The notes under the pieces: generated by a model
The model's database searches: none
Told to the model about the DNA's origin: nothing
Seen by the model: the letters and a program-made list of their open reading frames with translations, nothing else
Made by a program: the position numbers and the translations under genes
Shown: piece by piece, positions 2,986 to 64,000 of the stretch
Numbering within the stretch: the stretch's first letter is position 1
Layout of the letters: every line of letters starts with the position of its first letter
DNA from: Minisyncoccota bacterium
Lineage (GTDB): Bacteria; Patescibacteriota; Minisyncoccia; Phycocordibacterales; UBA9973
DNA length: 64,000 nucleotides
NCBI GenBank assembly: GCA_018061035.1
Contig: JAGOUX010000001.1
Coordinates: 6,817 to 70,816 of the forward strand
Direction of reading: 5' to 3'

Positions 2986-3024
2986 TGGTAATATTATAGC
3001 AGGATTTAAAAGGTAATAAAGTAC

Positions 3025-9514: not shown

Positions 9515-9559
9515 TAGAATATTGTAGCACTTTGTTAAAATTTAACTACAAGTGTCGAA

Positions 9560-10820: not shown

Positions 10821-11315
10821 TTAGATTGAATTTGAACTCGCAAGGCGTTTTAGGCCAATGAAAGCAATTCCACCTGATAGAGCCAATAGAGCTAGAAGGC
10901 CGTAAGTGTTGGCACCAGCACCTGTTGTAGGTAAGCCTGGATTTGTAGTTGTGCCACCAGGAATTGGAGCATTCGTAGCTACAAATGTTCCGTTACATGG
11001 CGCAGCTGTGATTGTGCTGTAGCCATAAATAGACGTACATCCTGCCAAGTATGAGATTGCAACTGAACCTCCACTACATGGAGCGCCATTTGTGACACTG
11101 TATCCTAATACACTCGAACAACCGTATAAGTTTCCCATGGTTGCAGTGGAAGTGCCATTACATGGAAGACCAGTTGTAACACTGTATCCCATCGCACTTG
11201 AACATCCCGAAGGAAAAGTCGCTGTCTGAGCACTAGCTGTCTCGGTTCCGCTAATAAACGCAATACTAAGCATGAATCCTAATACCATTGCTGATCCAAA
11301 TATTTTTTTAATCAT
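10821..11315 (-). CDS. LPXTG-anchored surface protein with tandem Cys-containing repeats
   Basis: Signal peptide; at least three ~26-aa repeats C-x5-Y-S-x-T-x-x-P-C-x-G; C-terminal LPTTG plus hydrophobic stretch plus KR tail. Confidence 0.7.
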   Translation of the reverse strand: MIKKIFGSAMVLGFMLSIAFISGTETASAQTATFPSGCSSAMGYSVTTGLPCNGTSTATMGNLYGCSSVLGYSVTNGAPCSGGSVAISYLAGCTSIYGYSTITAAPCNGTFVATNAPIPGGTTTNPGLPTTGAGANTYGLLALLALSGGIAFIGLKRLASSNSI

Positions 11316-15467: not shown

Positions 15468-16448
15468 CTACCCTAAAGTAGCCAAAAAATCATTAGTTAT
15501 AGTTTCGATCTCAGATGCAGTATTTGCTTCCATCAGCTTAACTCGGAGTTCCTTTGCCCCATCAAAATTATTAACATAAGCTTTGTAGTGCTTCTTCATG
15601 ATTGCAAAGTTCTTGTATCCACCAAGTTTCTCTTCGAATAATTTTGTATGTTCGACCATGACTCGTAATTTCTCCTCTACCGACGGTACTTTTGTAAAGG
15701 ACTGTCCTTTACAAGAAAATAGCCAGGGGTTGCCAAAGATAGCTCTACCGAGCATAACACCATCACAACCAGTATCTGCAACTTTTTTCTCAGCATCAGA
15801 GATATCAAGAGCATCGCCATTGCCGAAAATGAGAGTATCTTTCTTCATTTCATCGCGAATAGCTAAGACATCCTTCATCAAGTCCCAGTGAGCTGGAACT
15901 AGAGACATTTCTTTTCGAGTACGAAGGTGAACTGTGAGCACTGCTATATCTTCTGACAATAGTTCGCGAATCCATGTATCTATCTCATTTTTATTATATC
16001 CAATGCGAGTCTTTACCGATATTGGCAATCCTTGACCTCCTTCGATGGCAGCACGAATAACCTCGCGGGCAAGCTTGGGATCTTTCATCATCGCTGCTCC
16101 TGCGCATTGCTTCTCAATGCTTTTATCGGGACAACCCATATTAATATCAATACCATCAAAACCAAGCTCCTTGCAGAGTTTTGCAGCTTCGCGGATATTC
16201 TCAGGCTTGCCTCCAAATATCTGCGCTACAATCGGGTGCTCATTAGGGCTAAATTTTAAATCAATCAGAAGTTTTTCGCGTGCCTGAAGGTGGGCTAATC
16301 CATCAGCAGAGACAAATTCAGTCCAGAATACATCAGGCTTCCCATATTTGTTTATAATCTCTCTAAACACACAATCCGTAACATCAGCCATAGGCGCTAG
16401 CACCATTATTGGTTTATTAAGTTTTGCCCAAAATCCTAAATTGCTCAT
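15468..16448 (-). CDS. tRNA-dihydrouridine synthase
   Basis: LAPMADVTDCVFRE and DINMGCP motifs of the Dus family; carries an in-frame palindromic insert (see findings). Confidence 0.85.
   Translation of the reverse strand: MSNLGFWAKLNKPIMVLAPMADVTDCVFREIINKYGKPDVFWTEFVSADGLAHLQAREKLLIDLKFSPNEHPIVAQIFGGKPENIREAAKLCKELGFDGIDINMGCPDKSIEKQCAGAAMMKDPKLAREVIRAAIEGGQGLPISVKTRIGYNKNEIDTWIRELLSEDIAVLTVHLRTRKEMSLVPAHWDLMKDVLAIRDEMKKDTLIFGNGDALDISDAEKKVADTGCDGVMLGRAIFGNPWLFSCKGQSFTKVPSVEEKLRVMVEHTKLFEEKLGGYKNFAIMKKHYKAYVNNFDGAKELRVKLMEANTASEIETITNDFLATLG
15691..15714. repeat. 24-bp perfect palindrome TTTGTAAAGGACTGTCCTTTACAA inside the dus CDS
   Basis: Identical to 38471-38494 inside rsmI; in frame, encoding CKGQSFT. 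Confidence 0.85.
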
Positions 16449-19593: not shown

Positions 19594-19713
19594 ATGAATC
19601 CCGTTAGAAGCCGCGGTCGCATTCATTTCAAAATAAATGCTTTTACTAATATCAAAAAAATTATTACTATAAAAAAGCTTAACCGCGGTGTTACAACCGC
19701 GACCTGCTTCTAA
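19594..19713 (+). other. Upstream ORF within MITE copy 1 (39 aa, MNPVRSRGR...TATCF)
   Basis: ATG supplied by the left TSD copy, open through the element, TAA inside the right TIR 5 nt before the topA ATG. Confidence 0.45.
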
Positions 19714-19718
19714 ACGGG
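19599..19718 (+). mobile_element. MITE-like element, copy 1 (between the topA promoter and the topA start)
   Basis: TIRs CCCGTTAGAAGCCGCGGTCGC / GCGACCTGCTTCTAAACGGG; 5-bp direct repeat ATGAA at 19594-19598 and 19719-19723. Confidence 0.7.
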
Positions 19719-21935
19719 ATGAAATTATTAATCGTAGAGTCACCATCAAAAGCTAAAACTATCGAGAAATATCTCGAGGGTTCTTATACTGTGCGCGCAT
19801 CAGTTGGACATGTGCGAGATCTTCCGAAATCCAACAAAAAGGCGATCGACATCGAAGCAGGATTTCTCCCCCATTACGAAATTTCTAAAGGAAAAGAAAA
19901 AGTAGTTCACGAACTACAAGGTTTAGCTGAAAAAGCAACGGAAATAATGCTTGCGACAGACCCCGACCGTGAAGGTGAAGCCATAGCTTGGCATATTGAG
20001 ACACTTCTCCATGCAGACAAGAAAGTTAAGGCTCCGATTCATAGAGTAGCCTTTCACGAAATCACCAAAGAGGCAGTTGAAGAAGCGCTCTCACATCCCC
20101 GCAAAATAGATACTGCACTTCGAAAGGCGCAAGAAGCGCGTCGGGTACTCGATCGACTCGTAGGCTACGATCTTTCAGGAATAATTTGGAAAAAAGTTCG
20201 CTATGGATTATCTGCAGGGCGAGTTCAATCCCCAGCTCTCCGTATTATTATGGAACGTGAACGTGAGATTCGAGCTTTTGTGCCAGAAAAGTACTGGAGG
20301 CTTTTTGGAATTTTTGAAACATCTAAAAAAGATAAGCTGACACTTGAGTGTAGCGAAGAGCCTCGTGATGAAAAATTAGTAAATAAAATATTAGAAGAAG
20401 GCAAAAAGGGTTCATGGATAGTAAAGGGAGTAAAAGAGTCTGAGCAAAAGAGATCTCCTCGTGCTCCATTTACCACATCGACACTTCAGCAAACCGCGAG
20501 CTCACGATTGGGCTACTCACCTTCTCGCACTATGCAGATCGCTCAGAAGCTCTACGAAGCAGGACATATCACATATATGCGTACAGATAGTACAAACCTT
20601 GGCGCTTCTGCTCAGAGCCAAATTCTGGCATTCGTAAAAAAGCAATACGGCCCGGAATATGCTGAAGCTCACATATATAAGACTAAATCTAAGAATGCTC
20701 AAGAAGCTCACGAAGCCATCCGTCCTACACATATAGAGAAGATGCATGCCGGCACTGAGGAGCAGAGCCGTCTGTATCAACTTATTTGGGAGCGAGCTAT
20801 CTCTTCTCAGATGACCGACGCAAAACTACTCAAGACAAAAATCACCGCTGTTATCGAAGGCCATGAAGACCTCCCAGAATTCGGAGCAGTTGGCTCAAGA
20901 TTACTTTTCCCAGGATGGCTTGCAGCTGATACAGGTGCTCGAGGTGAAGATGTGGAACTACCACTTGTAAAAGCCGGCGAAAAATTAAAACTACTTGATC
21001 TCACAAGTGAAGAGAAGTTTACCGAGCCACCAGGCAGATATTCAGAGGCAGGTCTTGTGAAGGAGCTTGAGAGTAGAGGCATTGGCCGACCGTCGACCTA
21101 CGCATCTATCATGCGCACAATCGAAGATCGTGGCTATGTACGCAAGGAAGGCAAAACATTGTTCCCCACCGACACTGGTGAAGTAGTTTCAGATTTTCTC
21201 GAAGCACATTTCGCAAATTATATCTCTGATACATTTACAGCAGAAATGGAAGATGAGCTCGATGAAATCTCTCGCGGTGAACGTGAGTACGAAAAAACTT
21301 TGAAGGATTTTTATGGTCCATTCCTAAAAGAAGTTAAAGCTAAAGATAAGTTGGAAAAAGCAACCAATTTGGGAGATGCCCCAGATGGCACAAAATGTCC
21401 CAAATGTGGAAGTACGATGATTATAAAATTATCCCGAGGCGGTAAATTTTATTCTTGCTCTAAGTATCCAGACTGTGATGGTGCTCTCATGCTCGATGGT
21501 ACTGAATTAAAAGGCCCAGAAGAAACCGGCGAAATGTGTCCTACATGTGGAGACAAGAAGGGCAAATCAGGTGGAGGCAAGCTTGTTGTTCGACAGCGAC
21601 GAGACGGAGGCGGAAGTTTTATATCTTGCTCACGATATCCAAAATGCAAATTTATCAAACAAGACGAAGCGGAACTCGCTCGCAAGCGCACTGGGGTATT
21701 GTGCCCTCTGTGCAAAACCGGTGATATATCCGAACGCCGAGGCAGATTCGGAATATTCTACTCATGCTCCAACTACCCAGACTGCAAATATGCAATCAAG
21801 GCCAAGCCAACTGGAAATATTTGTAAAGAATGCGGAGCACTCATGATGGAAGGTACTAAGACAATCCCCGAGAGATGTTCAAACAAAGCATGTAAAATGC
21901 ACAATCCTCACAAAATCCCAAAAATTGAATCATAG
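19719..21935 (+). CDS. topA: DNA topoisomerase I
   Basis: TOPRIM/Topo IA core plus four C-terminal C4 zinc-ribbon repeats (CPKCG...CSKYPDC etc.). Confidence 0.9.
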   Translation: MKLLIVESPSKAKTIEKYLEGSYTVRASVGHVRDLPKSNKKAIDIEAGFLPHYEISKGKEKVVHELQGLAEKATEIMLATDPDREGEAIAWHIETLLHADKKVKAPIHRVAFHEITKEAVEEALSHPRKIDTALRKAQEARRVLDRLVGYDLSGIIWKKVRYGLSAGRVQSPALRIIMEREREIRAFVPEKYWRLFGIFETSKKDKLTLECSEEPRDEKLVNKILEEGKKGSWIVKGVKESEQKRSPRAPFTTSTLQQTASSRLGYSPSRTMQIAQKLYEAGHITYMRTDSTNLGASAQSQILAFVKKQYGPEYAEAHIYKTKSKNAQEAHEAIRPTHIEKMHAGTEEQSRLYQLIWERAISSQMTDAKLLKTKITAVIEGHEDLPEFGAVGSRLLFPGWLAADTGARGEDVELPLVKAGEKLKLLDLTSEEKFTEPPGRYSEAGLVKELESRGIGRPSTYASIMRTIEDRGYVRKEGKTLFPTDTGEVVSDFLEAHFANYISDTFTAEMEDELDEISRGEREYEKTLKDFYGPFLKEVKAKDKLEKATNLGDAPDGTKCPKCGSTMIIKLSRGGKFYSCSKYPDCDGALMLDGTELKGPEETGEMCPTCGDKKGKSGGGKLVVRQRRDGGGSFISCSRYPKCKFIKQDEAELARKRTGVLCPLCKTGDISERRGRFGIFYSCSNYPDCKYAIKAKPTGNICKECGALMMEGTKTIPERCSNKACKMHNPHKIPKIES

Positions 21936-24442: not shown

Positions 24443-24483
24443 GAAATGATTTTAACATATTAAAAAATATTTCGACAATTGAT

Positions 24484-24555
24484 CCCGTTAGAGATTATGT
24501 TAATTACTTGGGGAATAAAAGGTCAATTTTTATATATTTCTGGATCTCTAACGGG
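24484..24555. mobile_element. MITE-like element, copy 5 (short subfamily)
   Basis: Perfect 12-bp TIRs CCCGTTAGAGAT / ATCTCTAACGGG with a perfect 6-bp TSD ATTGAT at 24478-24483 and 24556-24561. Confidence 0.7.
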
Positions 24556-24604
24556 ATTGATTTTGAGTATAAATATGTGTATCATATGTGGATTAGCCCC
24601 TATT

Positions 24605-24688
24605 GCCCAGGTGGCGGAATTGGTAGACGCGATAGACTCAAAATCTATTGTTGGCAACAACATGAGAGTTCGATTCTCTCCCTGGGCA
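24605..24688 (+). tRNA. tRNA-Leu (anticodon CAA)
   Basis: Hand fold: acceptor GCCCAGG/CCUGGGC, anticodon loop CUCAAAA, long variable arm, T-arm GAGAG-UUCGAUU-CUCUC; 84 nt. Confidence 0.85.
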
Positions 24689-24783
24689 CAGAAACAGTAA
24701 ATTTATTTACTGTTGTGGAGAGATCGAAAGGATTTTCGTTGTTGAATGAAATGAAACCGAAAATCACCCGGCTAAGTAATAGC

Positions 24784-24806
24784 CGATTCTCTCCCTGGGC
24801 ACAGAG
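24784..24806 (+). repeat. Direct repeat of the tRNA-Leu 3' end (identical to 24671-24693)
   Basis: CGATTCTCTCCCTGGGCACAGA is repeated 113 bp downstream. Confidence 0.8.
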
Positions 24807-24819
24807 AAAATTAAACAAT

Positions 24820-26136
24820 ATGAAAAATAATACTGAGGATTTTGTAATAGAAGGCGGAAGGAAGCTTTCAGGTACGATCGAAACAAACACATCCAAAAAT
24901 GGCTCTGTGGGTCTTTTGTGCGCCGCATTGATAAATAAAGGCAAGACCACCCTTCATGGTATTTCTAAAATCGAAGAAGTCTACAGAGTCATCGAAATAC
25001 TAGAAAGTATCGGTGTCGATATTAAATGGGTTGGCGACCAAATCATCGAGATGCAACCACCAGCAAAGTTTAATCTCCGAGGTCTTGATCAGACAGCAGC
25101 ACTCAAAACTAGAAGCATCATCATGCTCGCTGGCCCGCTTATACACAATCTTAAATCCTTTTATCTTCCCCACGCTCAAGGTTGCAAACTCGGCAAACGC
25201 ACAGTTAGTGCTCATATCTACGGACTCGAAGAGCTAGGCGTAAAGATCAAGGTTACTAATCAAAACTATAATATTAGCTACAAAAAGCTTCACGCTCGAG
25301 AAATTATCATGTATGAATCTGGTGACACTGCATGCGAGAACCTCATCACCGCTGCTGCGCTAATACCCGGCAAAACTACTATAAAATTCGCCGCATCAAA
25401 TTATATGGTCCAGGAAGTATGTTTCTTTATGGAATCCTTGGGGGTTAAGATCGAGGGCATTGGTACTTCCACATTGGTAATCCATGGTGTCAAAGAGATC
25501 AACAAGGATCTCGAGTACTGCAATAGTGAAGATCCTATCGAATCTATGATGTGGATCACTGCTGCTATCGCTACAAATTCCGAACTTGAAATCAAACGCT
25601 GTCCTATAAATTTCCTAGAGCTAGAGCTTTATAAACTCAAAAAGATGGGTCTACGGTTTAAAGTTTCCCCTATTTACAAATCATACAATCACCGCACCAA
25701 CCTTGCCGATATAAAGGTTCTCCCTTCTAGGCTCAAAGCTCTCGAGGACAAGATCGAGGCACGTCCCTACCCAGGCATCAATATCGACAACCTTCCATTC
25801 TTTGGAATGATTGCCGCATGCGCCAAAGGTACAACTTTGATTCATGACTGGGTTTATGAAAATCGTGCAATTTACCTAACAGAATTAAATCGACTTGGTG
25901 GAACAGTACTTCTAGCAGATCCTCATAGAGTGTATGTGGAAGGTCCAACTAAGTGGAAACCAGGACAGCTAGTGTGCCCTCCTGCACTTCGTCCGTCTGT
26001 GGTTATCATGCTGGCTATGCTCGCAGCCAATGGTAATTCTACTCTTCACAATGTATATATGATCAAGCGCGGATATGAGGACATCGTAAACAGATTCAAC
26101 AGCATAGGTGCCAATATCAGATCAGTTCAGAACTAA
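24820..26136 (+). CDS. murA: UDP-N-acetylglucosamine 1-carboxyvinyltransferase
   Basis: EPT-fold MurA-like sequence. The ORF-track N-terminal extension runs through tRNA-Leu and is spurious; the start is the ATG at 24820. Confidence 0.85.
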   Translation: MKNNTEDFVIEGGRKLSGTIETNTSKNGSVGLLCAALINKGKTTLHGISKIEEVYRVIEILESIGVDIKWVGDQIIEMQPPAKFNLRGLDQTAALKTRSIIMLAGPLIHNLKSFYLPHAQGCKLGKRTVSAHIYGLEELGVKIKVTNQNYNISYKKLHAREIIMYESGDTACENLITAAALIPGKTTIKFAASNYMVQEVCFFMESLGVKIEGIGTSTLVIHGVKEINKDLEYCNSEDPIESMMWITAAIATNSELEIKRCPINFLELELYKLKKMGLRFKVSPIYKSYNHRTNLADIKVLPSRLKALEDKIEARPYPGINIDNLPFFGMIAACAKGTTLIHDWVYENRAIYLTELNRLGGTVLLADPHRVYVEGPTKWKPGQLVCPPALRPSVVIMLAMLAANGNSTLHNVYMIKRGYEDIVNRFNSIGANIRSVQN

Positions 26137-26143
26137 AACTACT

Positions 26144-26223
26144 CCCGTTAGAAATTCTATGATTGGAAACTTTACTAAAAGTGATATAACAATGGAAATG
26201 CGAAGCATTTCCTATTTCTAACG
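26144..26223 (+). mobile_element. MITE-like element, copy 6 (short TIR, between murA and miaA)
   Basis: TIRs CCCGTTAGAAAT / ATTTCTAACG, no clear TSD; the reading frame CCC GTT AGA ... TTC TAA is open throughout. Confidence 0.55.
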
Positions 26224-26225
26224 TG

Positions 26226-27101
26226 ATGCAAAAAGTTTTTGTTATACTCGGGCAAACAACTACCGGCAAGAGTGCTTTGGCGGTAAAATTGGCAAAGAAA
26301 ATTAACGGAGAAATTATCTCTGCTGATTCACGGCAAGTATACACAGGTCTGAATATAGGTAGCGGAAAAGTAACAAAAAAAGAAATGGCTGGTGTCCCCC
26401 ATCATTTGCTTGATGTTGTGAGCCTAAAGAAAAAATTCTCTGTTGCTGAATATCAAAAATTAGCAAATAGTGTAATCACTGAAATTATAAAGCGAGGTAA
26501 GGTACCAATTATAGTTGGCGGAACGGGGTTCTATATTGATGCTGTAACCAAAGGCATAGTCTTACCCGAAGTACCACCCAATCCTAAGCTACGCAAAGAG
26601 CTAGAGAAGAAGAGCCTGTCTCAATTGGTGACAATGCTCAAAAAGCTCGATCCCGCGCGAGTAAAAAATATTGATGTGAAAAATAAAGTACGCTTAATCC
26701 GAGCCATAGAAATATCCAAGACGCTTGGGAAGGTACCAAAAATTAAAATCATGAAACCCGCATATGAATTCGTGCAGTTAGGATTATTTCTCCCCGAGAA
26801 GAAATTGAGGTCAAAAATATCTACTCGTCTCAAATCTAGAATGACTCAAGGAATGCTTCGTGAAGCAAAGAGTTTAAATAAAAATGGTCTGTCGTGGAAG
26901 CGCATGCGAGAGCTAGGATTGGAATACAGATTTATGGCTCTTCATCTAGAAGGAAAAATTAACAAAAAAGAAATGATAGAGAAGCTAGAGAAAGAGATAT
27001 ATCAATACGCCAAACGCCAAATGACTTGGTTCAAGAGAGATCAGAGTATTATTTGGTTTGACGCTTCCAAGAAAATTAGCCTTCGTAAAATTGGTGTATA
27101 A
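26226..27101 (+). CDS. miaA: tRNA dimethylallyltransferase
   Basis: P-loop GQTTTGKSALAV and DSRQVY motif. Confidence 0.85.
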   Translation: MQKVFVILGQTTTGKSALAVKLAKKINGEIISADSRQVYTGLNIGSGKVTKKEMAGVPHHLLDVVSLKKKFSVAEYQKLANSVITEIIKRGKVPIIVGGTGFYIDAVTKGIVLPEVPPNPKLRKELEKKSLSQLVTMLKKLDPARVKNIDVKNKVRLIRAIEISKTLGKVPKIKIMKPAYEFVQLGLFLPEKKLRSKISTRLKSRMTQGMLREAKSLNKNGLSWKRMRELGLEYRFMALHLEGKINKKEMIEKLEKEIYQYAKRQMTWFKRDQSIIWFDASKKISLRKIGV

Positions 27102-27108: not shown

Positions 27109-27189
27109 ATGGATTCCGTTAGAAGCCGCGGTCGCAATTACAATCAAATAACCTTAAGTAGTCTCGGTCTGACCGCGACCTGCTTCTAA
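27109..27189 (+). other. Upstream ORF within MITE copy 2 (26 aa, MDSVRSRGR...TATCF)
   Basis: Starts at the ATG of the left TSD copy and ends at a TAA in the right TIR 4 nt before the murI ATG. Confidence 0.45.
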
Positions 27190-27192
27190 CGG
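27115..27192 (+). mobile_element. MITE-like element, copy 2 (inserted at the murI start codon)
   Basis: TIRs CCGTTAGAAGCCGCGGTCGC / GACCGCGACCTGCTTCTAACGG; 7-bp TSD GATGGAT at 27108-27114 and 27193-27199. Confidence 0.75.
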
Positions 27193-27193
27193 G

Positions 27194-27910
27194 ATGGATG
27201 CACGACCGATTGGAGTTTTTGATTCAGGTATAGGAGGACTGACAGTTCTCAAGGAACTACAAAAGGCTATGCCAAATGAGAATTTCATATACCTAGCAGA
27301 TCAGGCTCACTTACCGTATGGAAACAAAAGCAAAAAAGAACTGATAGGCATAACTAGCACTATCATGAATTACTTCCTCACAAAGGATGTGAAGCTTGTA
27401 GTTATAGCTTGCAACACTGCTACTGCAAATACCATCGATGCCCTTCGCAAGAAATATTCTCTACCCATTGTTGGTACAATTCCTGCAGTTAAGCCCGCAG
27501 CAGAAAATACAAAGACTGGAACTATCGCGGTATTATCTACACCCGCAACAGCAAAAAGTTCTGCTTTGAAGAAATTGATCAGACAGTATTGCCGAGGAAT
27601 AAAAGTGCTCAACATTCCCTGCCCCGATCTAGTTGCTCAAATAGAAAAAGGCGACCTAGATAGTACAAAAACAAAGAAACTTTTGGAAAAATACCTCAAG
27701 CCCGTAATAGATTCAAATGCTGACCATGTTGTCCTTGGATGTACCCATTACCCACTTCTCAAGAAACAGATGCAAAAAATATTAGGAAGAAAAGTAAAAA
27801 TTATAGACTCGGGAACAGCCATTGCAAAAAGAACAAAACATATTCTACAACGGGAAAATATAGAAAATAAAACTAGGGGTAAGACTATTTACCAAACTAC
27901 ACTTACTTAA
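27194..27910 (+). CDS. murI: Glutamate racemase
   Basis: VFDSGIGGLTV and GCTHYP motifs. Confidence 0.85.
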   Translation: MDARPIGVFDSGIGGLTVLKELQKAMPNENFIYLADQAHLPYGNKSKKELIGITSTIMNYFLTKDVKLVVIACNTATANTIDALRKKYSLPIVGTIPAVKPAAENTKTGTIAVLSTPATAKSSALKKLIRQYCRGIKVLNIPCPDLVAQIEKGDLDSTKTKKLLEKYLKPVIDSNADHVVLGCTHYPLLKKQMQKILGRKVKIIDSGTAIAKRTKHILQRENIENKTRGKTIYQTTLT

Positions 27911-27918
27911 TTCACAAT

Positions 27919-28419
27919 TTAAGAATTTAATATTTTATTAGCCAATTTTTCCAATTTCTTAAAATCAGCTTTTGGGCCATCGTGAGAAGCCAAATATCCT
28001 TCGTACTTTTTGTAGTAATCCATTTTATTACTGGAATACTGTTTCCATATGCCCTTTTTCATGTGAGCTGTGCCGTGCATAGGCACTAGCTTTATATGAG
28101 CATGATTTATGCCTGTACCTTCCATGATCAAACCCACTCTACCCACGTCTTTGAAATTCTTAAGTAATAAATTAGAAACTTTTTTTGATACCAATATAAA
28201 TGAAGCTAGCTCTTTATCGGGCATTGCCAAGACATCAGAATCATAATGTTTTTTAGGTATAACTACAGCGAAGCCTTCTGTATTTGGAAATGGAGAAAGC
28301 CAAGCCATATATTTTTTATCTTCATATATTTTCCCGTTTCCCAAGGGATTCATTGTATGTGATCCTATTTCACAAAAAATGCACTTATTTTCCACTGTGA
28401 CTGATTTGTATTTGGACAT
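27919..28419 (-). CDS. HIT-family (histidine triad) hydrolase
   Basis: CIFCEI zinc motif and HAHIKLVPMHG histidine triad. Confidence 0.75.
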   Translation of the reverse strand: MSKYKSVTVENKCIFCEIGSHTMNPLGNGKIYEDKKYMAWLSPFPNTEGFAVVIPKKHYDSDVLAMPDKELASFILVSKKVSNLLLKNFKDVGRVGLIMEGTGINHAHIKLVPMHGTAHMKKGIWKQYSSNKMDYYKKYEGYLASHDGPKADFKKLEKLANKILNS

Positions 28420-34693: not shown

Positions 34694-35707
34694 TTACTTC
34701 TTACTTAATACTGTTTTCTTATATACGTCCAAGTGATCGAGTGCTATGCCTGTACCTTTGACAACACAAAATAATGCATCCTCTGCTAGATTTGCCTTTA
34801 CTCCAGTCTTGCGATATACGAGATCAGTAAGATTGCGGAGCTGAGATGAGCCACCAGTCATGATTATTCCGTGATCCATGATATCAGAAGCCAATTCGGG
34901 TGGAGTCTCCTGAAGTACGTCCTTAATAGCTTTAATAATTTGTTTCAATTCTCCATCAATAGCTCTAACTATTTCATTTGTACCTACCTGAGCGCTTCGA
35001 GGCAAGCCTTGTATAAAATCTCTACCTTTGATTGTTACTCTTAGTTCTTCATCGAGAAGTATTGCTGCTCCAATTTTAATTTTAACTTCTTCGGCTGTTC
35101 TATCACCAATGGCTAGGTTGAAAGTTTTTTTAATATAGTCTGCGATAGCTTGATCAATTTTATTGCCAGCACACTTTACAGAAGTAGAAGCAACGATTCC
35201 GCCAAGCGAAATCACAGCTACGTCTGTGGTGCCTCCGCCTATGTCTACTACCATATACCCTTTTGATTCATATATGGGAATTCCCGCACCGATAGCTGCC
35301 AAAATCGGCTCTTTGACGACATAAGCATTTCTAGCGCCTGCGCGAATTGCAGCTTCTACCACTGCTCGACGTTCGGTCGAAGTCACTCCAGCTGGCACAG
35401 AGACCATCACATCTGGTTTGAAAAAATTCCATTTACCCATAGCCTTGCTGATAAAATATCTGAGCATTGCTTCAGTCACTCGATAATCCGCAATGACTCC
35501 ATCCTTCATCGGACAATATGTAATAATAGATTCGGGTGTCTTGCCGATCATATCTTTCGCTTCGAAACCAATAGCTAAAATTTTATTATCTTGCTCTGAA
35601 ACTGCTACCACTGATGGTTCATTTAATACTATTCCTTTGCCGGGCATAAATACGAGCGTATTTGCAGTACCCAAATCTATTCCTAATTTCTTTGAAAAAA
35701 TACCCAT
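34694..35707 (-). CDS. mreB: Rod-shape-determining protein MreB
   Basis: Actin-fold MreB sequence (GIDLGTANT, DIGGGTTD). Confidence 0.9.
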   Translation of the reverse strand: MGIFSKKLGIDLGTANTLVFMPGKGIVLNEPSVVAVSEQDNKILAIGFEAKDMIGKTPESIITYCPMKDGVIADYRVTEAMLRYFISKAMGKWNFFKPDVMVSVPAGVTSTERRAVVEAAIRAGARNAYVVKEPILAAIGAGIPIYESKGYMVVDIGGGTTDVAVISLGGIVASTSVKCAGNKIDQAIADYIKKTFNLAIGDRTAEEVKIKIGAAILLDEELRVTIKGRDFIQGLPRSAQVGTNEIVRAIDGELKQIIKAIKDVLQETPPELASDIMDHGIIMTGGSSQLRNLTDLVYRKTGVKANLAEDALFCVVKGTGIALDHLDVYKKTVLSKK

Positions 35708-35821
35708 CCCGTTAGAAGCAGGTCACGGTTGAATAACCGTGATTTAGCTTGATTATCTTATTAAATTTTTGAAGTTTGATTATCATTTTTTCTTAATATT
35801 GTGACCACTATTTCTAACGGG
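35708..35821. mobile_element. MITE-like element, copy 3 (abutting the mreB start codon)
   Basis: TIRs CCCGTTAGAAGCAGGTCACGG / TGTGACCACTATTTCTAACGGG; perfect 6-bp TSD ACCCAT at 35702-35707 and 35822-35827. Confidence 0.7.
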
Positions 35822-35863
35822 ACCCATGAAAGTAATATAACACATATATGCTAGAATAAAAGC

Positions 35864-38112: not shown

Positions 38113-38802
38113 CTAAGACACAATTACAGTAAATTCCCCTCTTTGCTTTTCAGTATTTTTTACAAAATATTCGAGAACTTCGGCAGGAGTGCCAGTTTTA
38201 AATTCCTCATATATTTTTGTAAGTTCACGGGCAACACACACCTTCTTCTCTGGGCAAAATTTTATTAACGATTCCAAAGTTTTTAAAATTCTGTGGGGAG
38301 ATTCATAAAACACCATTGTCCGCTCTGATGATGCTATTTCTTTAAATAATGTTTCTCTACCCTTTTTGTGCGGTAAAAATCCAAGAAAAGTAAATTCATG
38401 AGTCGGAAGTCCTGAAGCCGAAAGCGCGGTGATCACAGCAGAAGCTCCAGGTATAGGCACCACCTCCACATTTGTAAAGGACTGTCCTTTACAAAATTTT
38501 TCTTTTATTTGTGAGACAAGCATGGCCCCTGGGTCAGATATGCCTGGCGTGCCTGCGTCTGAAACCAATGCCAAATCTTTACCTTCCTCAAGCATTTCAA
38601 AAATTTTATCTGTCTTGGACAACTTACTCTGCGCGTGGTAGCTCATAGTAGGCTTGCTGATAGCGTATTTATTTAAAAGATTTTTAGTTGTACGGGTGTC
38701 TTCGCAGAGTATTAGATCCACACTTTTAAGCGTTTCAATTGCCCGAAGAGTGATATCTCCCATATTGCCTATTGGTGTCGCTATTACATAAAATTTAGAC
38801 AT
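38113..38802 (-). CDS. rsmI: 16S rRNA 2'-O-methyltransferase RsmI-like (tetrapyrrole-methylase fold)
   Basis: N-terminus LYVIATPIGNMGDITLRAIETL; carries the same in-frame palindromic insert as dus. Confidence 0.8.
   Translation of the reverse strand: MSKFYVIATPIGNMGDITLRAIETLKSVDLILCEDTRTTKNLLNKYAISKPTMSYHAQSKLSKTDKIFEMLEEGKDLALVSDAGTPGISDPGAMLVSQIKEKFCKGQSFTNVEVVPIPGASAVITALSASGLPTHEFTFLGFLPHKKGRETLFKEIASSERTMVFYESPHRILKTLESLIKFCPEKKVCVARELTKIYEEFKTGTPAEVLEYFVKNTEKQRGEFTVIVS
38471..38494. repeat. Same 24-bp palindrome inside the rsmI CDS
   Basis: Identical sequence; encodes CKGQSFTN on the minus strand. Confidence 0.85.
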
Positions 38803-42276: not shown

Positions 42277-43182
42277 CTATCCTATGCTTGCCATGCCGGC
42301 GCTGATCTCTGATATTTCTCTGGTAATGTTCGACTGTCTGGCTTTGTTAAATACTAATGTAAGATCATCTATCATTTCTCCCGAAGCTTCTGATGCGTTC
42401 TTCATGGCCATCATTCTACTCGATTGCTCTGAAGCGTTTGATTCAAGGAGCATCTGGTAGATCTGCATTCGAGTGAGCTTCTCTGCAAGTGACTCAATAA
42501 GCTCATCCATATTTCCTTCAAACAAATATGGCGATTCTCCTGTCGGTGTTAAGTCAATTTTCTGATTTTCATTTTTTGCCGTATGGACTATTTCTGTCAT
42601 GTCATCCTTTGATATAGGCAAGAGTTTTCTAATTTTCGGCTTCTGAGTTAATGCTGATATAAAATCTGTATATGCCACATACACTTCCTTATATTTTTCA
42701 CTTTTAAATTCATTTATTAAAAGAGTTGATAGTGGTGCAACATCTGATAGTCGAAGCACCGCTGGTAGATCTGTGAAGGCAGCGAGTACATTTTGTTTTA
42801 CTCGGCGCATTGCCTCATCCCCCTTTTTGCCAACTGAAACAATATCTACCATCGCTGGATCTGCTTGGATCTTTAGCATACTAAGCACCTTTTTAATTAT
42901 CTGAGAATTGTATCCGCCACACAGTGAACCATTCGAAGTGATAAGCACTATAAGAGTGCGTCCTTCTGTTCGATCTACGAAGAATGGGTGGGTTATCTCT
43001 TCGAGTTTATTTGAAAGTGAAGTAAGCAATTCCCATGAATAGCCGGAATAAAGGCGAGAAGAAGTAGCCTGAGCGACAGCTCGGCGCATCTTAGAAGCAG
43101 CCACCAATTCCATTGCTTTGGTGATCTTCTTGGTGTTCTTCACACTTTTTATTCTTCTTTTTATTTCCTTTGTTCCAGCCAT
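42277..43182 (-). CDS. atpG: ATP synthase F1 gamma subunit
   Basis: Position between alpha and beta; gamma-like termini. Confidence 0.85.
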   Translation of the reverse strand: MAGTKEIKRRIKSVKNTKKITKAMELVAASKMRRAVAQATSSRLYSGYSWELLTSLSNKLEEITHPFFVDRTEGRTLIVLITSNGSLCGGYNSQIIKKVLSMLKIQADPAMVDIVSVGKKGDEAMRRVKQNVLAAFTDLPAVLRLSDVAPLSTLLINEFKSEKYKEVYVAYTDFISALTQKPKIRKLLPISKDDMTEIVHTAKNENQKIDLTPTGESPYLFEGNMDELIESLAEKLTRMQIYQMLLESNASEQSSRMMAMKNASEASGEMIDDLTLVFNKARQSNITREISEISAGMASIG

Positions 43183-43258
43183 CCCATTATAAATTTTAAT
43201 TAATAATCTTTCATTATTTTATCCTGCCCGTTCAATTTATAACGGGTCAAGTATAATT

Positions 43259-52059: not shown

Positions 52060-52281
52060 TTATTTCTTTGCTTTGGTAGCGACAAGAGCTCGGCGCTTGT
52101 TGAATCGATCTACGCGTCCTGCTGTGTCCATGATCTTTTCGTTACCTGTATAGAATGGATGGCAAGAACTGCAGATTTCCATACGGATTTCTGGCATAGT
52201 TGAGCCAACCTCAAAGACTGCTCCGCATGCGCAGATTGCCTTTGTTTTGATATCATATTTTGGGTGAATGTCTTTTTTCAT
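52060..52281 (-). CDS. rpmE: 50S ribosomal protein L31
   Basis: MKKDIHPKY...CxxC...C pattern. Confidence 0.9.
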   Translation of the reverse strand: MKKDIHPKYDIKTKAICACGAVFEVGSTMPEIRMEICSSCHPFYTGNEKIMDTAGRVDRFNKRRALVATKAKK

Positions 52282-56934: not shown

Positions 56935-57789
56935 TTATTTTATACCGTTGAAAAGTTTCAGTCTGGCTTCCACAACAGCTTCAACTGCATCCTCAGCAGG
57001 TTGCAAAATCTTTGCAGGAGTAATTTCTTCTGTATGTTCTGATAACGACTCTTTTACAGCATCACGGAAAGCCAAGCGAAGCTCAGAGTTAATGTGCACT
57101 ACTGAAATTCCTGCCTTGATAGCATTGGTAAAGTCTTCATCCCTAAGTCCTGATCCACCATGAAGTACCAGCGGAATTTTTACCGCATCTTTTATTTTTT
57201 TTACCAGTTCCGCATCTATGTGCGGTTTGCCACTCTTGATAAGGCCATGAATACTACCGACAGACGGCGCGAACATATCTATACCAGTTTCTTCCACAAA
57301 TCTTTTTGCATCCTCGGGTGTAGTCAGTACTCCTGCGCCTTCAGGTATAGTTTCTTTGATATCTGAGCCTGACCCGATATATCCGAGTTCTGCTTCTACT
57401 AGAACCTCGCGTCCAATCATTCGCGCATATATTACGCACTCCTTAGTGACTTTTACATTCTCTTCAAAGCTAAGCTTGGCTCCATCAATAATAACCATAT
57501 CAAAGCCAGCATCAATCGAGGCCTTCACAGACTCAAAGCTTGAATGATGATCGGCATTTAGAAATATCGGATAATCATCTCTGGTGCGGATAGCCTGCAC
57601 GAGAGCAACTGCCTCCTCTCTGCCCACAAATTTCTCTTCACCCTCAGAAACTCCGATTATCACCGGCACATTTAGCTTCTTTGCCGCATTGTAGATGGCA
57701 TGAAGGGCCTCTAAATTTGAAATATTAAAATGTCCAATAGCTACACCCTTATCTTCTGCTTCTTTTATATATTCTCTGAGTGATTTCAT
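56935..57789 (-). CDS. fba: Fructose-bisphosphate aldolase class II
   Basis: KGVAIGHFNISNLE, GVSEG and HGGSG motifs. Confidence 0.9.
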   Translation of the reverse strand: MKSLREYIKEAEDKGVAIGHFNISNLEALHAIYNAAKKLNVPVIIGVSEGEEKFVGREEAVALVQAIRTRDDYPIFLNADHHSSFESVKASIDAGFDMVIIDGAKLSFEENVKVTKECVIYARMIGREVLVEAELGYIGSGSDIKETIPEGAGVLTTPEDAKRFVEETGIDMFAPSVGSIHGLIKSGKPHIDAELVKKIKDAVKIPLVLHGGSGLRDEDFTNAIKAGISVVHINSELRLAFRDAVKESLSEHTEEITPAKILQPAEDAVEAVVEARLKLFNGIK

Positions 57790-57905
57790 TCCGTTAGAGG
57801 CAGGTCGCGATCTTCGCTTCCTGTAAATTATTTATAATGTAGTTAGTAGTAATAATGTTATTAATTAATCTTAATGGTATTTTGTGACCGCGGCCTCTAA
57901 CGGAA
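57790..57905 (-). mobile_element. MITE-like element, copy 4 (abutting the fba start codon)
   Basis: TIRs CCGTTAGAGGCAGGTCGCGA / TGTGACCGCGGCCTCTAACGG; 5-bp TSD TTCAT at 57785-57789 and 57906-57910. Confidence 0.7.
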
Positions 57906-57910
57906 TTCAT
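57794..57910 (-). other. Upstream ORF within MITE copy 4 (38 aa, MNSVRGRGH...IATCL)
   Basis: ATG from the TSD copy, open through the element, TAA in the TIR, then 4 nt (CGGA), then the fba ATG. Confidence 0.45.
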
Positions 57911-57914
57911 GATT

Positions 57915-59345
57915 TTATTTTAGCATTTCCTTAAGCAACTTTATAACGATCTGTGGGTTGGCTGATCCATTTGATTCTTTGATGACCTTGCCCACGAGTG
58001 ACATTATCGCATTCTCCTTGCCGGCTTTATATGTGGCCACGACTTCGGGATTTGCATCTATCATTTTCTGTACTATCTCTTTGAGCGCTCCTTCATCATT
58101 ACTCTGCAGCATATTCTTTTCGGTCGCTATTTTAAGTGGAGACTCATCAGAAACTACAATCATCGCAAGAATATCCTTGGCTCCACGAGAAGAAATTTTA
58201 CTTTCGGCAATCAAGCCGACAAGCTCCCCAAAATTTAGAGGTGAAGGAAGCTTGGCATTAGAATTTGCCTTCTTGAGTCCCGTAAAGTCAGAGGTAATAT
58301 AGTTTGATGCAATTTTAATTTTTTCCTTGTCGACGAGGATCTTAGAAACTTCTTCGAACCATACTCCGAGCTCAGGATCATTCACATACACTTCGATATC
58401 TTCTGCTTTAATGCCGAAATTATTCATATATCTTTCTCTCTTCTCGGCTGGCAGCTCAGGCAAATTTTTCTTCATAGCCTCGAGATCGAAAGCTTCGTGA
58501 AGTTTCATTTTTGGCAGATCAGGATCGGGGAAATATCGGTAGTCTTCACTGGACTCCTTTTTGCGCTGAGAGAATGTTTTCTGCTTGGCTTCATCCCAGC
58601 CTCGTGTCTCCTTTACTATTTCTTCTTCTTTGCCGGCTTCTATGAGCTCAATCATTCTCTCTATCTCGTATTTGATCGCTTTCTCGACAGTCTTGAATGA
58701 GTTAAGGTTCTTCACCTCGACATAACTCTTGGACATTTTGTTCGGATCAGCAGACACAGAAACGTTCGCCTCTACACGCATCTCACCTTTCTCCATATTC
58801 GCTTCTGAAGCTCCGAGATACCAGAGCAAAAGCTGATACTCTTTCGCGAATACGCTCGCTGCTTTGGCAGCCTCGTCTCCAGTATCAAATGTATGCGCAC
58901 CGGTTACCAGCTCCATCAGTGGCACTCCTGCTCGGTTGAAATCTATCAAAGAGAAATCTCCACGATCATGTTTGTTGTTCGCTGTGTCTTCCTCGAGGTG
59001 TATACGAGTAACTTTCATCCCCGCCAAGGCACCGCCTGAGACTATTGGATATTTGTATTGCGAGATCTGGTAGCCCTTTGGTATGTCGGGATAGAAATAG
59101 TTTTTGCGATCAAATTCAGAAAAGTCCGCGATATTGGCGCCAATTGCTAGACCCACCTTGATCACATTCTCTATTGCCTGCTTATTAGGTACAGGCAGAG
59201 CTCCCGGATGTGCCATGCACACAGGACATATATTAGTATTCGGATTCTCTTCATCAGGATCGTTTTTGCAGGAGCAAAACATCTTGGTTTTGGTCTTAAG
59301 TTCCGCGTGAATCTCAAGTCCAATTGTCGGATAATATTTGGTCAT
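57915..59345 (-). CDS. gatB: Asp-tRNA(Asn)/Glu-tRNA(Gln) amidotransferase subunit B
   Basis: N-terminal IGLEIHAELKT, C-terminal YqeY-like helical domain. Confidence 0.9.
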   Translation of the reverse strand: MTKYYPTIGLEIHAELKTKTKMFCSCKNDPDEENPNTNICPVCMAHPGALPVPNKQAIENVIKVGLAIGANIADFSEFDRKNYFYPDIPKGYQISQYKYPIVSGGALAGMKVTRIHLEEDTANNKHDRGDFSLIDFNRAGVPLMELVTGAHTFDTGDEAAKAASVFAKEYQLLLWYLGASEANMEKGEMRVEANVSVSADPNKMSKSYVEVKNLNSFKTVEKAIKYEIERMIELIEAGKEEEIVKETRGWDEAKQKTFSQRKKESSEDYRYFPDPDLPKMKLHEAFDLEAMKKNLPELPAEKRERYMNNFGIKAEDIEVYVNDPELGVWFEEVSKILVDKEKIKIASNYITSDFTGLKKANSNAKLPSPLNFGELVGLIAESKISSRGAKDILAMIVVSDESPLKIATEKNMLQSNDEGALKEIVQKMIDANPEVVATYKAGKENAIMSLVGKVIKESNGSANPQIVIKLLKEMLK

Positions 59346-62457: not shown

Positions 62458-62494
62458 GGTTCTATTATATCAAAGTGTGTTAAAATAACCCAAT

Positions 62495-63654: not shown

Positions 63655-64000
63655 ACAAGAAGATAGGGTGGCGACCACACGGTCGCCACCCTCGCGAGAA
63701 AATATATCAAGCACCGAAGAGCATATGCCCGATCGGTGCTTTCTTCGTTTTACCCTTAATGTGCTAAAATATATGGACTTGTCCCGTTATAAATTTAGCT
63801 CGCGGGATTTTGTAAATAAAGATTATTAATTAAAATTTATAATGGGATGCAAATTATTTGGATATTATTGGGAGTTATCGCAGGAGGCCTAGTAGCATAT
63901 GCTATCCTAGGAAAAAAGAGAGATGATTCAAATGGAGCCAAGGATCAATCCTTACTTCTTCTTCAGCAACAAATGGCCGAGCTCGCGAGAGCCCTTGATT

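Follow-up and report, generated by a model that had tools for sequence, protein, structure and literature searches.

The nearest described analogue of the element reported here is the Correia element (CREE, also NEMIS) of Neisseria, a small non-coding inverted-repeat element that duplicates its target and places a hairpin on the 5′ side of genes. CREE are about 100-155 bp long, have terminal inverted repeats and a target duplication, carry no transposase of their own and exceed 100 copies per genome (PMC2649163). They lie mostly 5′ of genes, with which they are co-transcribed, and their mRNA hairpin affects expression; they target TA, are confined to one genus, may carry their own promoters plus an integration host factor (IHF) site and stand at variable distances from the gene (PMC2649163). 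Here we analyse a stretch of 64,000 nt of contig JAGOUX010000001.1 (Minisyncoccota bacterium, assembly GCA_018061035.1; hereafter, the window), in which a comparable element separates the genes gatB and fba. Unlike CREE, this element ends precisely at the ATG of the gene that follows, with the start codon duplicated; it occurs in nearly a single orientation, has arms kept across a superphylum and lacks an internal promoter signal. Its target, (A)TGRR at gene starts, and its arms, with consensus CCCGTTAGARGC and ends CCCGTTAGA...TCTAACGGG, likewise differ from the TA (or CA) target and the Correia repeat. We are highly confident that the gatB-fba copy (copy 4 of the window) is a mobile insertion at a leaderless start.

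Other small, palindromic and non-autonomous repeats tolerated in or near genes include ERIC/IRU, RUP, BOX and the Rickettsia palindromic elements (RPEs), the last of which are found even inside open reading frames (ORFs). An RPE is translated in frame as part of its host protein, whereas the present element is set off from the gene by a stop codon of its own. We know of no such repeat resembling a miniature inverted-repeat transposable element (MITE) that targets start codons or transcription starts.

Copy 4 lies on the minus strand of the window, as do all positions given for this locus, between gatB (57915-59345, a 476-aa ORF with Pfam domains GatB_N and GatB_Yqey) and fba (56935-57789, a 284-aa ORF encoding a class II fructose-bisphosphate aldolase, PF01116, E = 2.4e-78). 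The original prediction placed here an upstream ORF (uORF) preceding fba, with a possible -10 hexamer, TAAAAT, located 6 nt before its ATG, and all of these features are present: the minus strand reads gaaaTGcTAAAATaaaatc-ATG-AAT-TCC-GTT-AGA-GGC-CGC-GGT-CAC ... ACC-TGC-CTC-TAA-cgga-ATG-AAA-TCA, the last ATG being that of fba. The uORF (57794-57910) runs for 38 codons from its ATG (57910-57908) to a TAA (57796-57794) and spans the entire element without a stop, the spacer CGGA (57793-57790) leaving 4 nt between this TAA and the fba ATG (57789-57787). On the other side, the 6-nt spacer aaaatc (57916-57911) separates the uORF ATG from TAAAAT (57922-57917), which together with the preceding TGc (57925-57923) forms the extended -10 of fba, TGcTAAAAT (TGCTAAAAT, 57917-57925). 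The final T of the hexamer also opens the gatB stop codon (TAA, 57915-57917, 4 nt 5′ of the uORF ATG), i.e., the -10 is embedded in the 3′ end of gatB. No terminator was found between gatB and fba, so read-through from gatB is possible, as had also been pointed out for this junction.

The element itself measures 116 nt, from T to A (57790-57905): inside the outer arms come a second GC-rich pairing and an AT-rich interior, and a local hairpin stands at the gene-proximal end. Its left outer arm TTCCGTTAGAGGC (57893-57905) is paired with 57801-57789 in the minimum free energy (MFE) fold, the second position being U-A where the family consensus has C-G, and its right outer arm GCCTCTAACGGA (57790-57801) includes the stop codon of the uORF and directly adjoins the fba ATG; inverted repeats, TTCCGTTAGAGGC ... 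GCCTCTAACGGAA, bound the region. The left inner arm CGCGGTCAC (57884-57892), conserved in the family, pairs with GATCGCG (57812-57806) with covariation across the family, while the local hairpin CAGG-AAGCGA-aga-TCGCGA-CCTG (57801-57823) of the MFE fold uses the inner right arm and the ACCT 'bulge'. The MFE of the copy-4 region is -33.5 kcal/mol (z = -5.8 against shuffles), with the fba AUG paired at the base of the stem. On both sides the element is flanked by ATGAA: the left copy (57906-57910), at the predicted transcription start, is the original fba start, which has become the uORF start, and the right copy (57785-57789) provides the working start codon of fba, 4 nt past the uORF stop.

Among the 62 genes examined in the window, 22 present a -10 located 5-9 nt before the ATG, mostly at 6 nt, with the consensus TGCTAnAAT-N6-ATG, which TGCTAAAAT matches, and only 3 present a Shine-Dalgarno (SD)-like motif. 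Examples of extended -10 sites are found at window positions 2986-3010, 9515-9540, 27911-27935 and 62458-62480. Judging from its sequence, the genome is mostly leaderless and nearly SD-free and, with SD essentially absent, one would expect the uORF ATG to be a leaderless start. The same arrangement had been pointed out at murI, where it does exist (TGTATAAT-gcccag-ATG), and the counts above extend it to ordinary genes. A generic sigma-70 scanner missed the fba promoter because it requires a -35 match and this genome uses extended -10 promoters; its negative result was set aside.

Conservation places this promoter before the insertion. Of 47 analysable fba loci in relatives, 41 keep TANNNT 4-10 nt before the ATG (19 of them at exactly 6 nt) and 33 have the TG extension; where the upstream gene is gatB-like, the -10 is kept at 18 of 22 loci, even with differing last GatB residues. 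Since the -10 is kept in relatives that have no element, TGCTAAAAT belongs to fba itself as its promoter, and the insertion downstream of it took place in this lineage. Both the pre-insertion fba and the present uORF thus have a -10 about 6-8 nt upstream and no SD, as leaderless genes do, and transcription of the uORF from a host -10 as a leaderless message, the central proposal of the original prediction, is strongly implied by the conserved -10 and the near absence of SD. The wider family described below behaves alike: TANNNT precedes the left ATG by 6-9 nt in 51 of 90 left flanks (most often by 6 nt, in 22 flanks), and none of the 90 has an SD at functional spacing. The element would sit at +5 to +7 of the predicted transcript, the hairpin beginning 5-7 nt after the putative transcription start. 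In copy 9 of the window and in family locus L036, which have no left ATG, the -10 and 6 nt are followed by ACTTGT|CCCG, with a predicted start six bases before the hairpin (in copy 9, TGCTAAAAT at 63762-63770 and a start at A63777).

Empty sites give the second line of evidence. A metagenome scan with Fba returned 70 relatives at 49-87% amino-acid identity, none of which carries a main-subfamily element at fba; comparison with related genomes had been suggested as a check, and it yields a conserved -10 at the gatB-fba junction together with about 65 related fba loci, at 50-87% amino-acid identity, scored as lacking the copy-4 element. Relatives that keep gatB upstream show the junction ...TGCTAAAATAA-aaagat-ATGAAAACA, and further empty gatB-fba junctions read gaaaTGCTAAAATAAaaagatATGAAAACA (L120), TGTTAAAATAA, TGATATAAT and TGCTACAAT. 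One distant pair (L163/L164, 62% identity) has a different, short-subfamily copy at the gatB-fba junction, 64 nt upstream of fba, which is a separate hit on this site; this copy carries a new TGTTATAAT internally, 37 nt before the ATG. By contrast, a site-by-site reading of the 64-kb window gives nine hairpin copies (copies 1-4 forming the main subfamily), eight of which run right up to the ATG of the following gene and share its orientation, and the 11-mer arm motif occurs there six times with one mismatch allowed (0.6 expected). Given that 201 kb of independently sampled DNA from relatives contained a single element site, against nine copies in 64 kb, the distribution is patchy and genome-specific.

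The junctions themselves indicate a duplication of the start codon. The left flank of family members consists of ATG plus 1, 2 or 3 bases followed by T-CCCG (19, 66 and 6 copies, respectively), and the bases after the left ATG equal those of the gene from nt 4 onward in 88 of 91 copies, whereas about 33 are expected by permutation. Purines occupy both positions 4 and 5 in 82% of element-bearing genes compared with 34% of ordinary window genes, which points to a sequence preference for (A)TGRR. The 13-nt outer arms are 97.5% complementary and are followed by the second, 7-nt pairing. Small and non-coding, with terminal inverted repeats, a target-site duplication and dispersed copies that differ in presence and absence, the element has the features by which MITEs are recognised: it is a non-coding, hairpin-forming, non-autonomous, MITE-like mobile element that inserts in the first bases of genes, mostly leaderless ones. 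Beyond the original prediction, the uORF ATG is the start codon with which fba originally began, preserved through the duplication that the insertion caused, and the element is a mobile insertion whose full-length uORF is enriched in the family without being universal. A phage vector was ruled out, there being no element matches in viral contigs.

To find family members, a single genome of each species was scanned for the right-arm motif CGYGACCTGCYTCTAACGGR (20 nt), the ATG being deliberately excluded from the pattern; all family counts in this work rest on the matches listed, namely at least 119 loci and 122 motif occurrences. All but one of the listed loci belong to metagenome-assembled genomes (MAGs) of Patescibacteria (candidate phyla radiation, CPR), with hosts including Saccharibacteria, Paceibacteria, Nomura-, Kaiser-, Moran-, Buchanan-, Komeili- and Zambryskibacteria. 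The motif is directly followed by ATG in 112 of the 122 listed matches and by GTG in 4 (116/122 together), and the left arm is found within 400 nt in 118, which gives elements of 45-229 nt (median 116). Conservation is limited to ~22 nt on the left (TCCCGTTAGARGCCGCGGTCRC) and ~24 nt on the right (GAC-CGCGACCTGCYTCTAACGGGA), the interior being merely AT-rich, and other subfamilies have just the outer ~12 nt in common with the main one. Near-identical copies are found inside one MAG (JAGVCW01; L043, L052). Some copies are in tandem, the duplicated hexamer of the second directly following the right end of the first (L030, L086, L103, L082 and L117). A literature search by taxon, by feature and by sequence found no description of the element. 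A known RNA family was also discarded: Rfam 15 returned only 4 tRNAs for the window at gathering thresholds, and at E up to 10 the hits on copies 1 and 4 are noise.

How fba is expressed past the insertion is best explained, in our view, by a relay. Before insertion, fba would have been leaderless, with TGCTAAAAT 6 nt before its ATG and an mRNA beginning at the A of that ATG. The insertion of a MITE-like hairpin in its first bases then duplicated ATGAA, so that the old start codon stayed at the predicted transcription start and opens the 38-codon uORF while a new, intact ATG follows the right arm. Transcription from the native promoter would start at A57910; a 70S ribosome would load in the leaderless mode on the 5′-terminal AUG, translate the uORF and melt the hairpin, terminate at the right-arm TAA and re-initiate at the fba AUG 4 nt downstream. 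We favour this combination of hairpin insertion, duplicated start and uORF relay as the overall explanation of copy 4, with fair but by no means full confidence; the narrower claim that the relay is how fba is expressed is put forward tentatively. Because SD is almost never used, re-initiation is already the normal route to non-first cistrons in this genome. The geometry is also that of termination-reinitiation coupling at ATGA and TAATG overlaps, the uORF stop lying 4 nt before the AUG without an SD; unlike in ordinary coupled cistrons, a mobile element supplies the partner, brings the stop codon and re-creates the start codon.

Family statistics are consistent with the relay. Among 94 copies with a left ATG and a right-arm TAA, 19 have a uORF open up to the TAA 4 nt before the gene's ATG, where about 3 are expected (P = 5e-10) under the assumption of free interiors and lengths; the enrichment is robust to the removal of related copies. 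The chance that a uORF is open up to the arm TAA is ~3% per copy, and this is seen in three of the four main-subfamily copies of the window (copies 1, 2 and 4). A stop 4 nt before the gene AUG is hence favoured and not required. The uORF peptides belong to no Pfam family and only their arm-encoded ends are conserved, on which grounds a functional micro-protein was discarded. A chance ORF or hexamer was equally ruled out, considering motif enrichment, the fold z-score, the uORF statistics and promoter conservation.

Several observations weigh against this explanation. About 75% of the copies have a uORF that ends prematurely within the element, the left ATG is absent from 22, and some orthologues have lost it (ATATAT in L055, GTAGAT in L069), so that a full-length relay uORF is not a general requirement. 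The gatB stop lies only 4 nt before the uORF ATG, and read-through from gatB could deliver ribosomes as well. The duplication varies in length (ATG plus 1, 2 or 3 nt) next to a fixed right junction, which is unusual for a simple staggered-cut transposase, and 919 kb around ~150 copies contained no autonomous copy with a transposase, only orphan arms at noise level; viral contigs yielded none either. Among the listed copies of the main subfamily, orientation is biased 117:1, and neither of the two causes tried accounts for it: an antisense intrinsic terminator was rejected, with terminator-like sites at 6/126 antisense and 3/126 sense, and so was an outward promoter inside the element, with -10-like hexamers in 48% in sense compared with 63% and no positional peak. 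Finally, an RNA-specific signature, in the form of G.U over A.C mismatches, was not seen (11 vs 21), and selection on RNA pairing is accordingly not separable from constraint at the DNA level.

The copies that lack a left ATG are informative in themselves. In 16 of the 22, a sense ORF of 60 codons or more comes in from upstream and terminates close to the left junction, in many cases at the left base of the hairpin; five have the sequence TAG|TCCCG. Where a left ATG is present but no -10, several copies show the classic ATGA overlap, of which the duplication preserves both stop and start. Taking leaderless ATGs, ATGA overlaps and upstream ORF ends together, a ribosome is predicted to be always delivered to the left base of the hairpin. 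This brings in a second reading, a pseudo-leaderless start or shunt, in which the stem loops out the insertion and sets the gene AUG beside the mRNA 5′ end or an upstream stop; a ribosome at the left base would melt the outer stem and start at, or be passed to, the adjacent AUG, with no need for uORF elongation. Such a hand-over would unify leaderless left AUGs, ATGA overlaps, upstream stops 0-17 nt from the left base and copies without a left ATG (copy 9, L036); it also agrees with the conservation of arms and not of the uORF, with the A of the gene AUG being paired in 107 of 112 MFE folds and with a hairpin always 5-7 nt past the putative transcription start. It leaves unexplained the enrichment of full-length uORFs that end 4 nt before the AUG. 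We consider it rather unlikely.

The 35S leader of cauliflower mosaic virus offers a likeness, since a short ORF there terminates at the foot of a stable stem, just beyond which initiation takes up again. Copies with an upstream ORF stop 0-17 nt before the hairpin resemble it in geometry only; unlike them, viral shunting is eukaryotic and depends on cap-dependent scanning. We know of no ribosome shunting in bacteria, nor of a bacterial precedent for shunting at initiation. A further likeness is given by the hairpin insertions of T4 gene 60 and of the Magnusiomyces mitochondrial 'byp' elements, which lie between identical take-off and landing codons that arose from duplication. The matched codons are AUG/AUG here, and ACA/ACA in one copy inside a lepB-like ORF (L042). 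Unlike the present element, bypass elements lie inside ORFs and need a nascent-peptide signal, whereas here the insertion is at the gene start, no sign of hopping is seen and uORFs read into the element; with 116 of the 122 listed copies at a start codon, only L042 fits the bypass geometry.

The structure of the element is asymmetric next to the gene. The gene-proximal local hairpin is the only asymmetry found: the inner right arm GACCGCGACCUGC finds a complementary partner in the 29 nt that precede the right arm (mean -9.7 vs -5.2 kcal/mol shuffled, P = 6e-17), and the left end has no comparable local pairing partner (P = 0.65). In other subfamilies the hairpin is next to the gene in 11 of 13 copies (P = 0.02). 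A recurrent version with a constant UAAA loop presents three compensatory double changes (GAAAAUC/GAUUUUC, GGAAAUC/GAUUUCC, GAAAGUC/GACUUUC, GAUAAUC/GAUUAUC). The main stem covaries too: among 73 distinct arm pairs, outer pair 11 is A-T in 46 and G-C in 23, and an inner pair outside the search pattern is G-C in 40, A-T in 8 and G-T in 8.

With GACCGCGACCUGC having two mutually exclusive partners, both conserved, and a uORF being present, a regulatory leader of the attenuator or riboswitch type comes to mind, in which the inner right arm would pair with either the left inner arm or the local upstream segment as an on/off switch, responding to a signal or to translation of the uORF. The same element stands before unrelated housekeeping genes and a tRNA, however, its uORF varies in frame and length, neither the uORF peptide nor the interior is conserved, Rfam has no match and the insertion is clearly missing from relatives. 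A leader-peptide attenuator, or any other regulatory leader, is for these reasons highly improbable.

Orthologous insertions (ssb in five instances, murG in four, mreB, nusB and others) are 93% identical in the arms, a value somewhat inflated by the 20 nt of right arm fixed by the search pattern, 48% identical in the interior and 51% identical at synonymous third positions. In four close species pairs (L055/L110, L017/L069, L038/L088, L071/L090), the whole element is 89-96% identical compared with 53-72% at adjacent synonymous sites, and the island of identity coincides with the element, interior included, which may reflect selection or recent recombination. These rates bear on a reading in which the element is a purely selfish MITE that plays no part in expression, uORF and hairpin are by-products, fba is reached by SD-independent internal initiation or by coupling to gatB, and arm conservation reflects only the youth of copies or recognition by a transposase. 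The terminal inverted repeats, flanking duplications, patchy distribution and tandem copies fit this reading, stem mismatches resemble neutral decay and the interior is unconstrained across loci. It does not account for arms, and in close pairs whole elements, that evolve more slowly than adjacent synonymous sites, nor for the 117:1 orientation of an element with symmetric outer arms, the enrichment of open uORFs and the compensatory changes in the gene-proximal hairpin; moreover, the right junction of the listed matches invariably reads CGGG|ATG and does not once lie a few nt farther upstream. Pure selfishness is in our judgement unlikely.

RNA processing would be another way for the gene to escape its leader. 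The element-bearing genes are housekeeping genes (topA, murI, mreB, fba, rpmE, miaA, ssb, murG), so their expression must survive the insertion. In rRNA intervening sequences, an endonuclease removes a hairpin in an analogous manner. At copy 4, the ~20-bp hairpin (the 13-bp outer stem and the second helix) might be cut by an RNase III-like endonuclease, which would remove the leader and regenerate a leaderless or short-leader fba mRNA. Stem length and conservation suit such a substrate, and stacking of the local hairpin on the outer stem can form a rod of ~21-23 bp. In CREE, the mRNA hairpins are RNase III substrates (PMC2649163), and the modelled stem geometry of ~20 bp is compatible with a substrate of that kind. 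Processing would further account for the tolerance of essential genes to the insertion and for a uORF start that is dispensable in some copies. It does not predict that the left ATG is retained in ~77% of copies or that open uORFs are enriched, and G.U pairs are not favoured. Cleavage of the copy-4 leader, predicted from stem geometry, strikes us as improbable, and the uORF relay is preferred over it.

A more general proposition is that of a superphylum-wide mobile 'leader cassette' that homes to leaderless starts, always in sense, and re-creates the start codon at its own 3′ end, with a hairpin that is indispensable in cis and acts via the uORF relay, the hairpin hand-over or cleavage. We advance it as a speculative possibility, doubtful though not far-fetched. 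If true, it would be a bacterial counterpart of an intron, placed in the translation-initiation region and doing no harm only as long as its structure stays intact, for which reason the host would preserve it. Arms conserved across a superphylum point to a conserved partner, for example a transposase, a nuclease or the ribosome. If our account holds, this would be the first small mobile element known to select the starts of genes to the exact nucleotide and yet not to disable essential ones (topA, mreB, murG, ssb, fba, ribosomal proteins). Up to about one gene in seven in the window is affected, and many classes of Patescibacteria have the element. The dozens of cases in which insertion gave a leader to a leaderless gene are natural 'experiments' that would provide a handle on how ribosomes choose internal start codons. 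As to annotation, automatic gene calling will frequently report the uORFs as hypothetical proteins or misplace the starts of host genes.

The remaining window copies, whose host genes were identified by Pfam, are distributed as follows. Copy 1 precedes topA (19599-19718, plus strand; ATG at 19719), with the left duplicate ATGAA at 19594-19598 and an open uORF, and copy 2 precedes murI (27114-27193, plus strand; ATG at 27194), with the left duplicate ATGGA (27109-27113) following TGTATAAT and 6 nt, the uORF again being open. Copy 3, at mreB (35708-35822, minus strand; ATG at 35707), has the left duplicate ATGGG at 35827-35823, a uORF that ends after 14 codons and an orthologous copy in L080. 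Copy 6, of a second subfamily, precedes rpmE (ribosomal protein L31; 52282-52400, minus strand; ATG at 52281), with ATGAA at 52405-52401, a uORF ending after 9 codons and a perfect gene-proximal hairpin of 8 bp. Copy 7, at miaA (26143-26225, plus strand; ATG at 26226), is degenerate and lacks a left ATG, the upstream ORF stopping 6 nt before the element. Copies 8 and 9 make up a third subfamily, with arms CCCGTTATAAATT...AATTTATAATGGG: the former lies within an operon before an atpG-like gene (43183-43246, minus strand; ATG at 43182), and the latter, which has no left ATG, precedes a gene running off the window end (63783-63846, plus strand; ATG at 63847). Considered as 43183-43252 (minus) and 63777-63846 (plus), these two copies are 84% identical and form, with arms CCCGTTATAAATT / AATTTATAATGGG, the longest inverted repeat in the window; both have ACTTG(A/T) at the left end in place of the duplicated ATG. 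The hexamers ACTTGT and TAGT, along with their mirror images, recur at element ends of unrelated loci.

Copy 5 (24483-24556, plus strand), of the short subfamily, differs from the others in lying 49 nt 5′ of a tRNA-Leu gene (24605-24689), with ATTGA at both flanks and no protein start. That it precedes a tRNA gene and not a protein start suggests that the transcription start, rather than the start codon, may be the target. The longest ORF of this region (24508-26136) begins inside copy 5 and crosses the tRNA-Leu, i.e., the real gene start must be downstream of the tRNA, and mechanical ORF calls near elements are therefore unreliable.

Listed family copies that do not abut an ATG are of several kinds: one is inverted, one lies inside a gene, one provides an exapted start, and several are in tandem or intergenic. 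A tRNA or other non-coding RNA downstream of them was discarded, no tRNA having been found there. The single reverse copy (L115, motif end 5232) has a plain unbulged arm abutting the ATG of a glyS-like (glycyl-tRNA-synthetase-like) gene on the other strand. In L042 (motif end 7649, reverse), the element lies 14 nt inside the lepB-like (signal-peptidase-like) ORF with ACAGA duplicated, GTG AAA ATA AAC ACAGA|element|ACAGAG..., and the frame is restored only if the element and one repeat are skipped or removed; this could be a pseudogene, a bypass or a case of RNA removal. In L065 (motif end 3121), a carB-like gene has no ATG of its own; starting it at an in-frame ATG inside the element would lengthen the protein by 22 residues at the N-terminus, and the element may thus have become the new carB start. 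L063 (2212-2256) is a 45-nt, arms-only version that is not beside a gene start, on a GC-rich contig of a MAG labelled Nitrospirota, and may represent either binning contamination or a copy outside the superphylum.

The window also contains other repeats. A 27-nt near-perfect palindrome, ACtTTTGTAAAGGACTGTCCTTTACAA, unrelated to the element, occurs twice with 96% identity (15688-15714 and 38468-38496) and may be a shared terminator or a protein-binding site. Direct repeats in or near ORFs are found at 24671-24701 and 24784-24814 (31 nt, 87%) and at 11057-11123 and 11141-11207 (67 nt, 73%).

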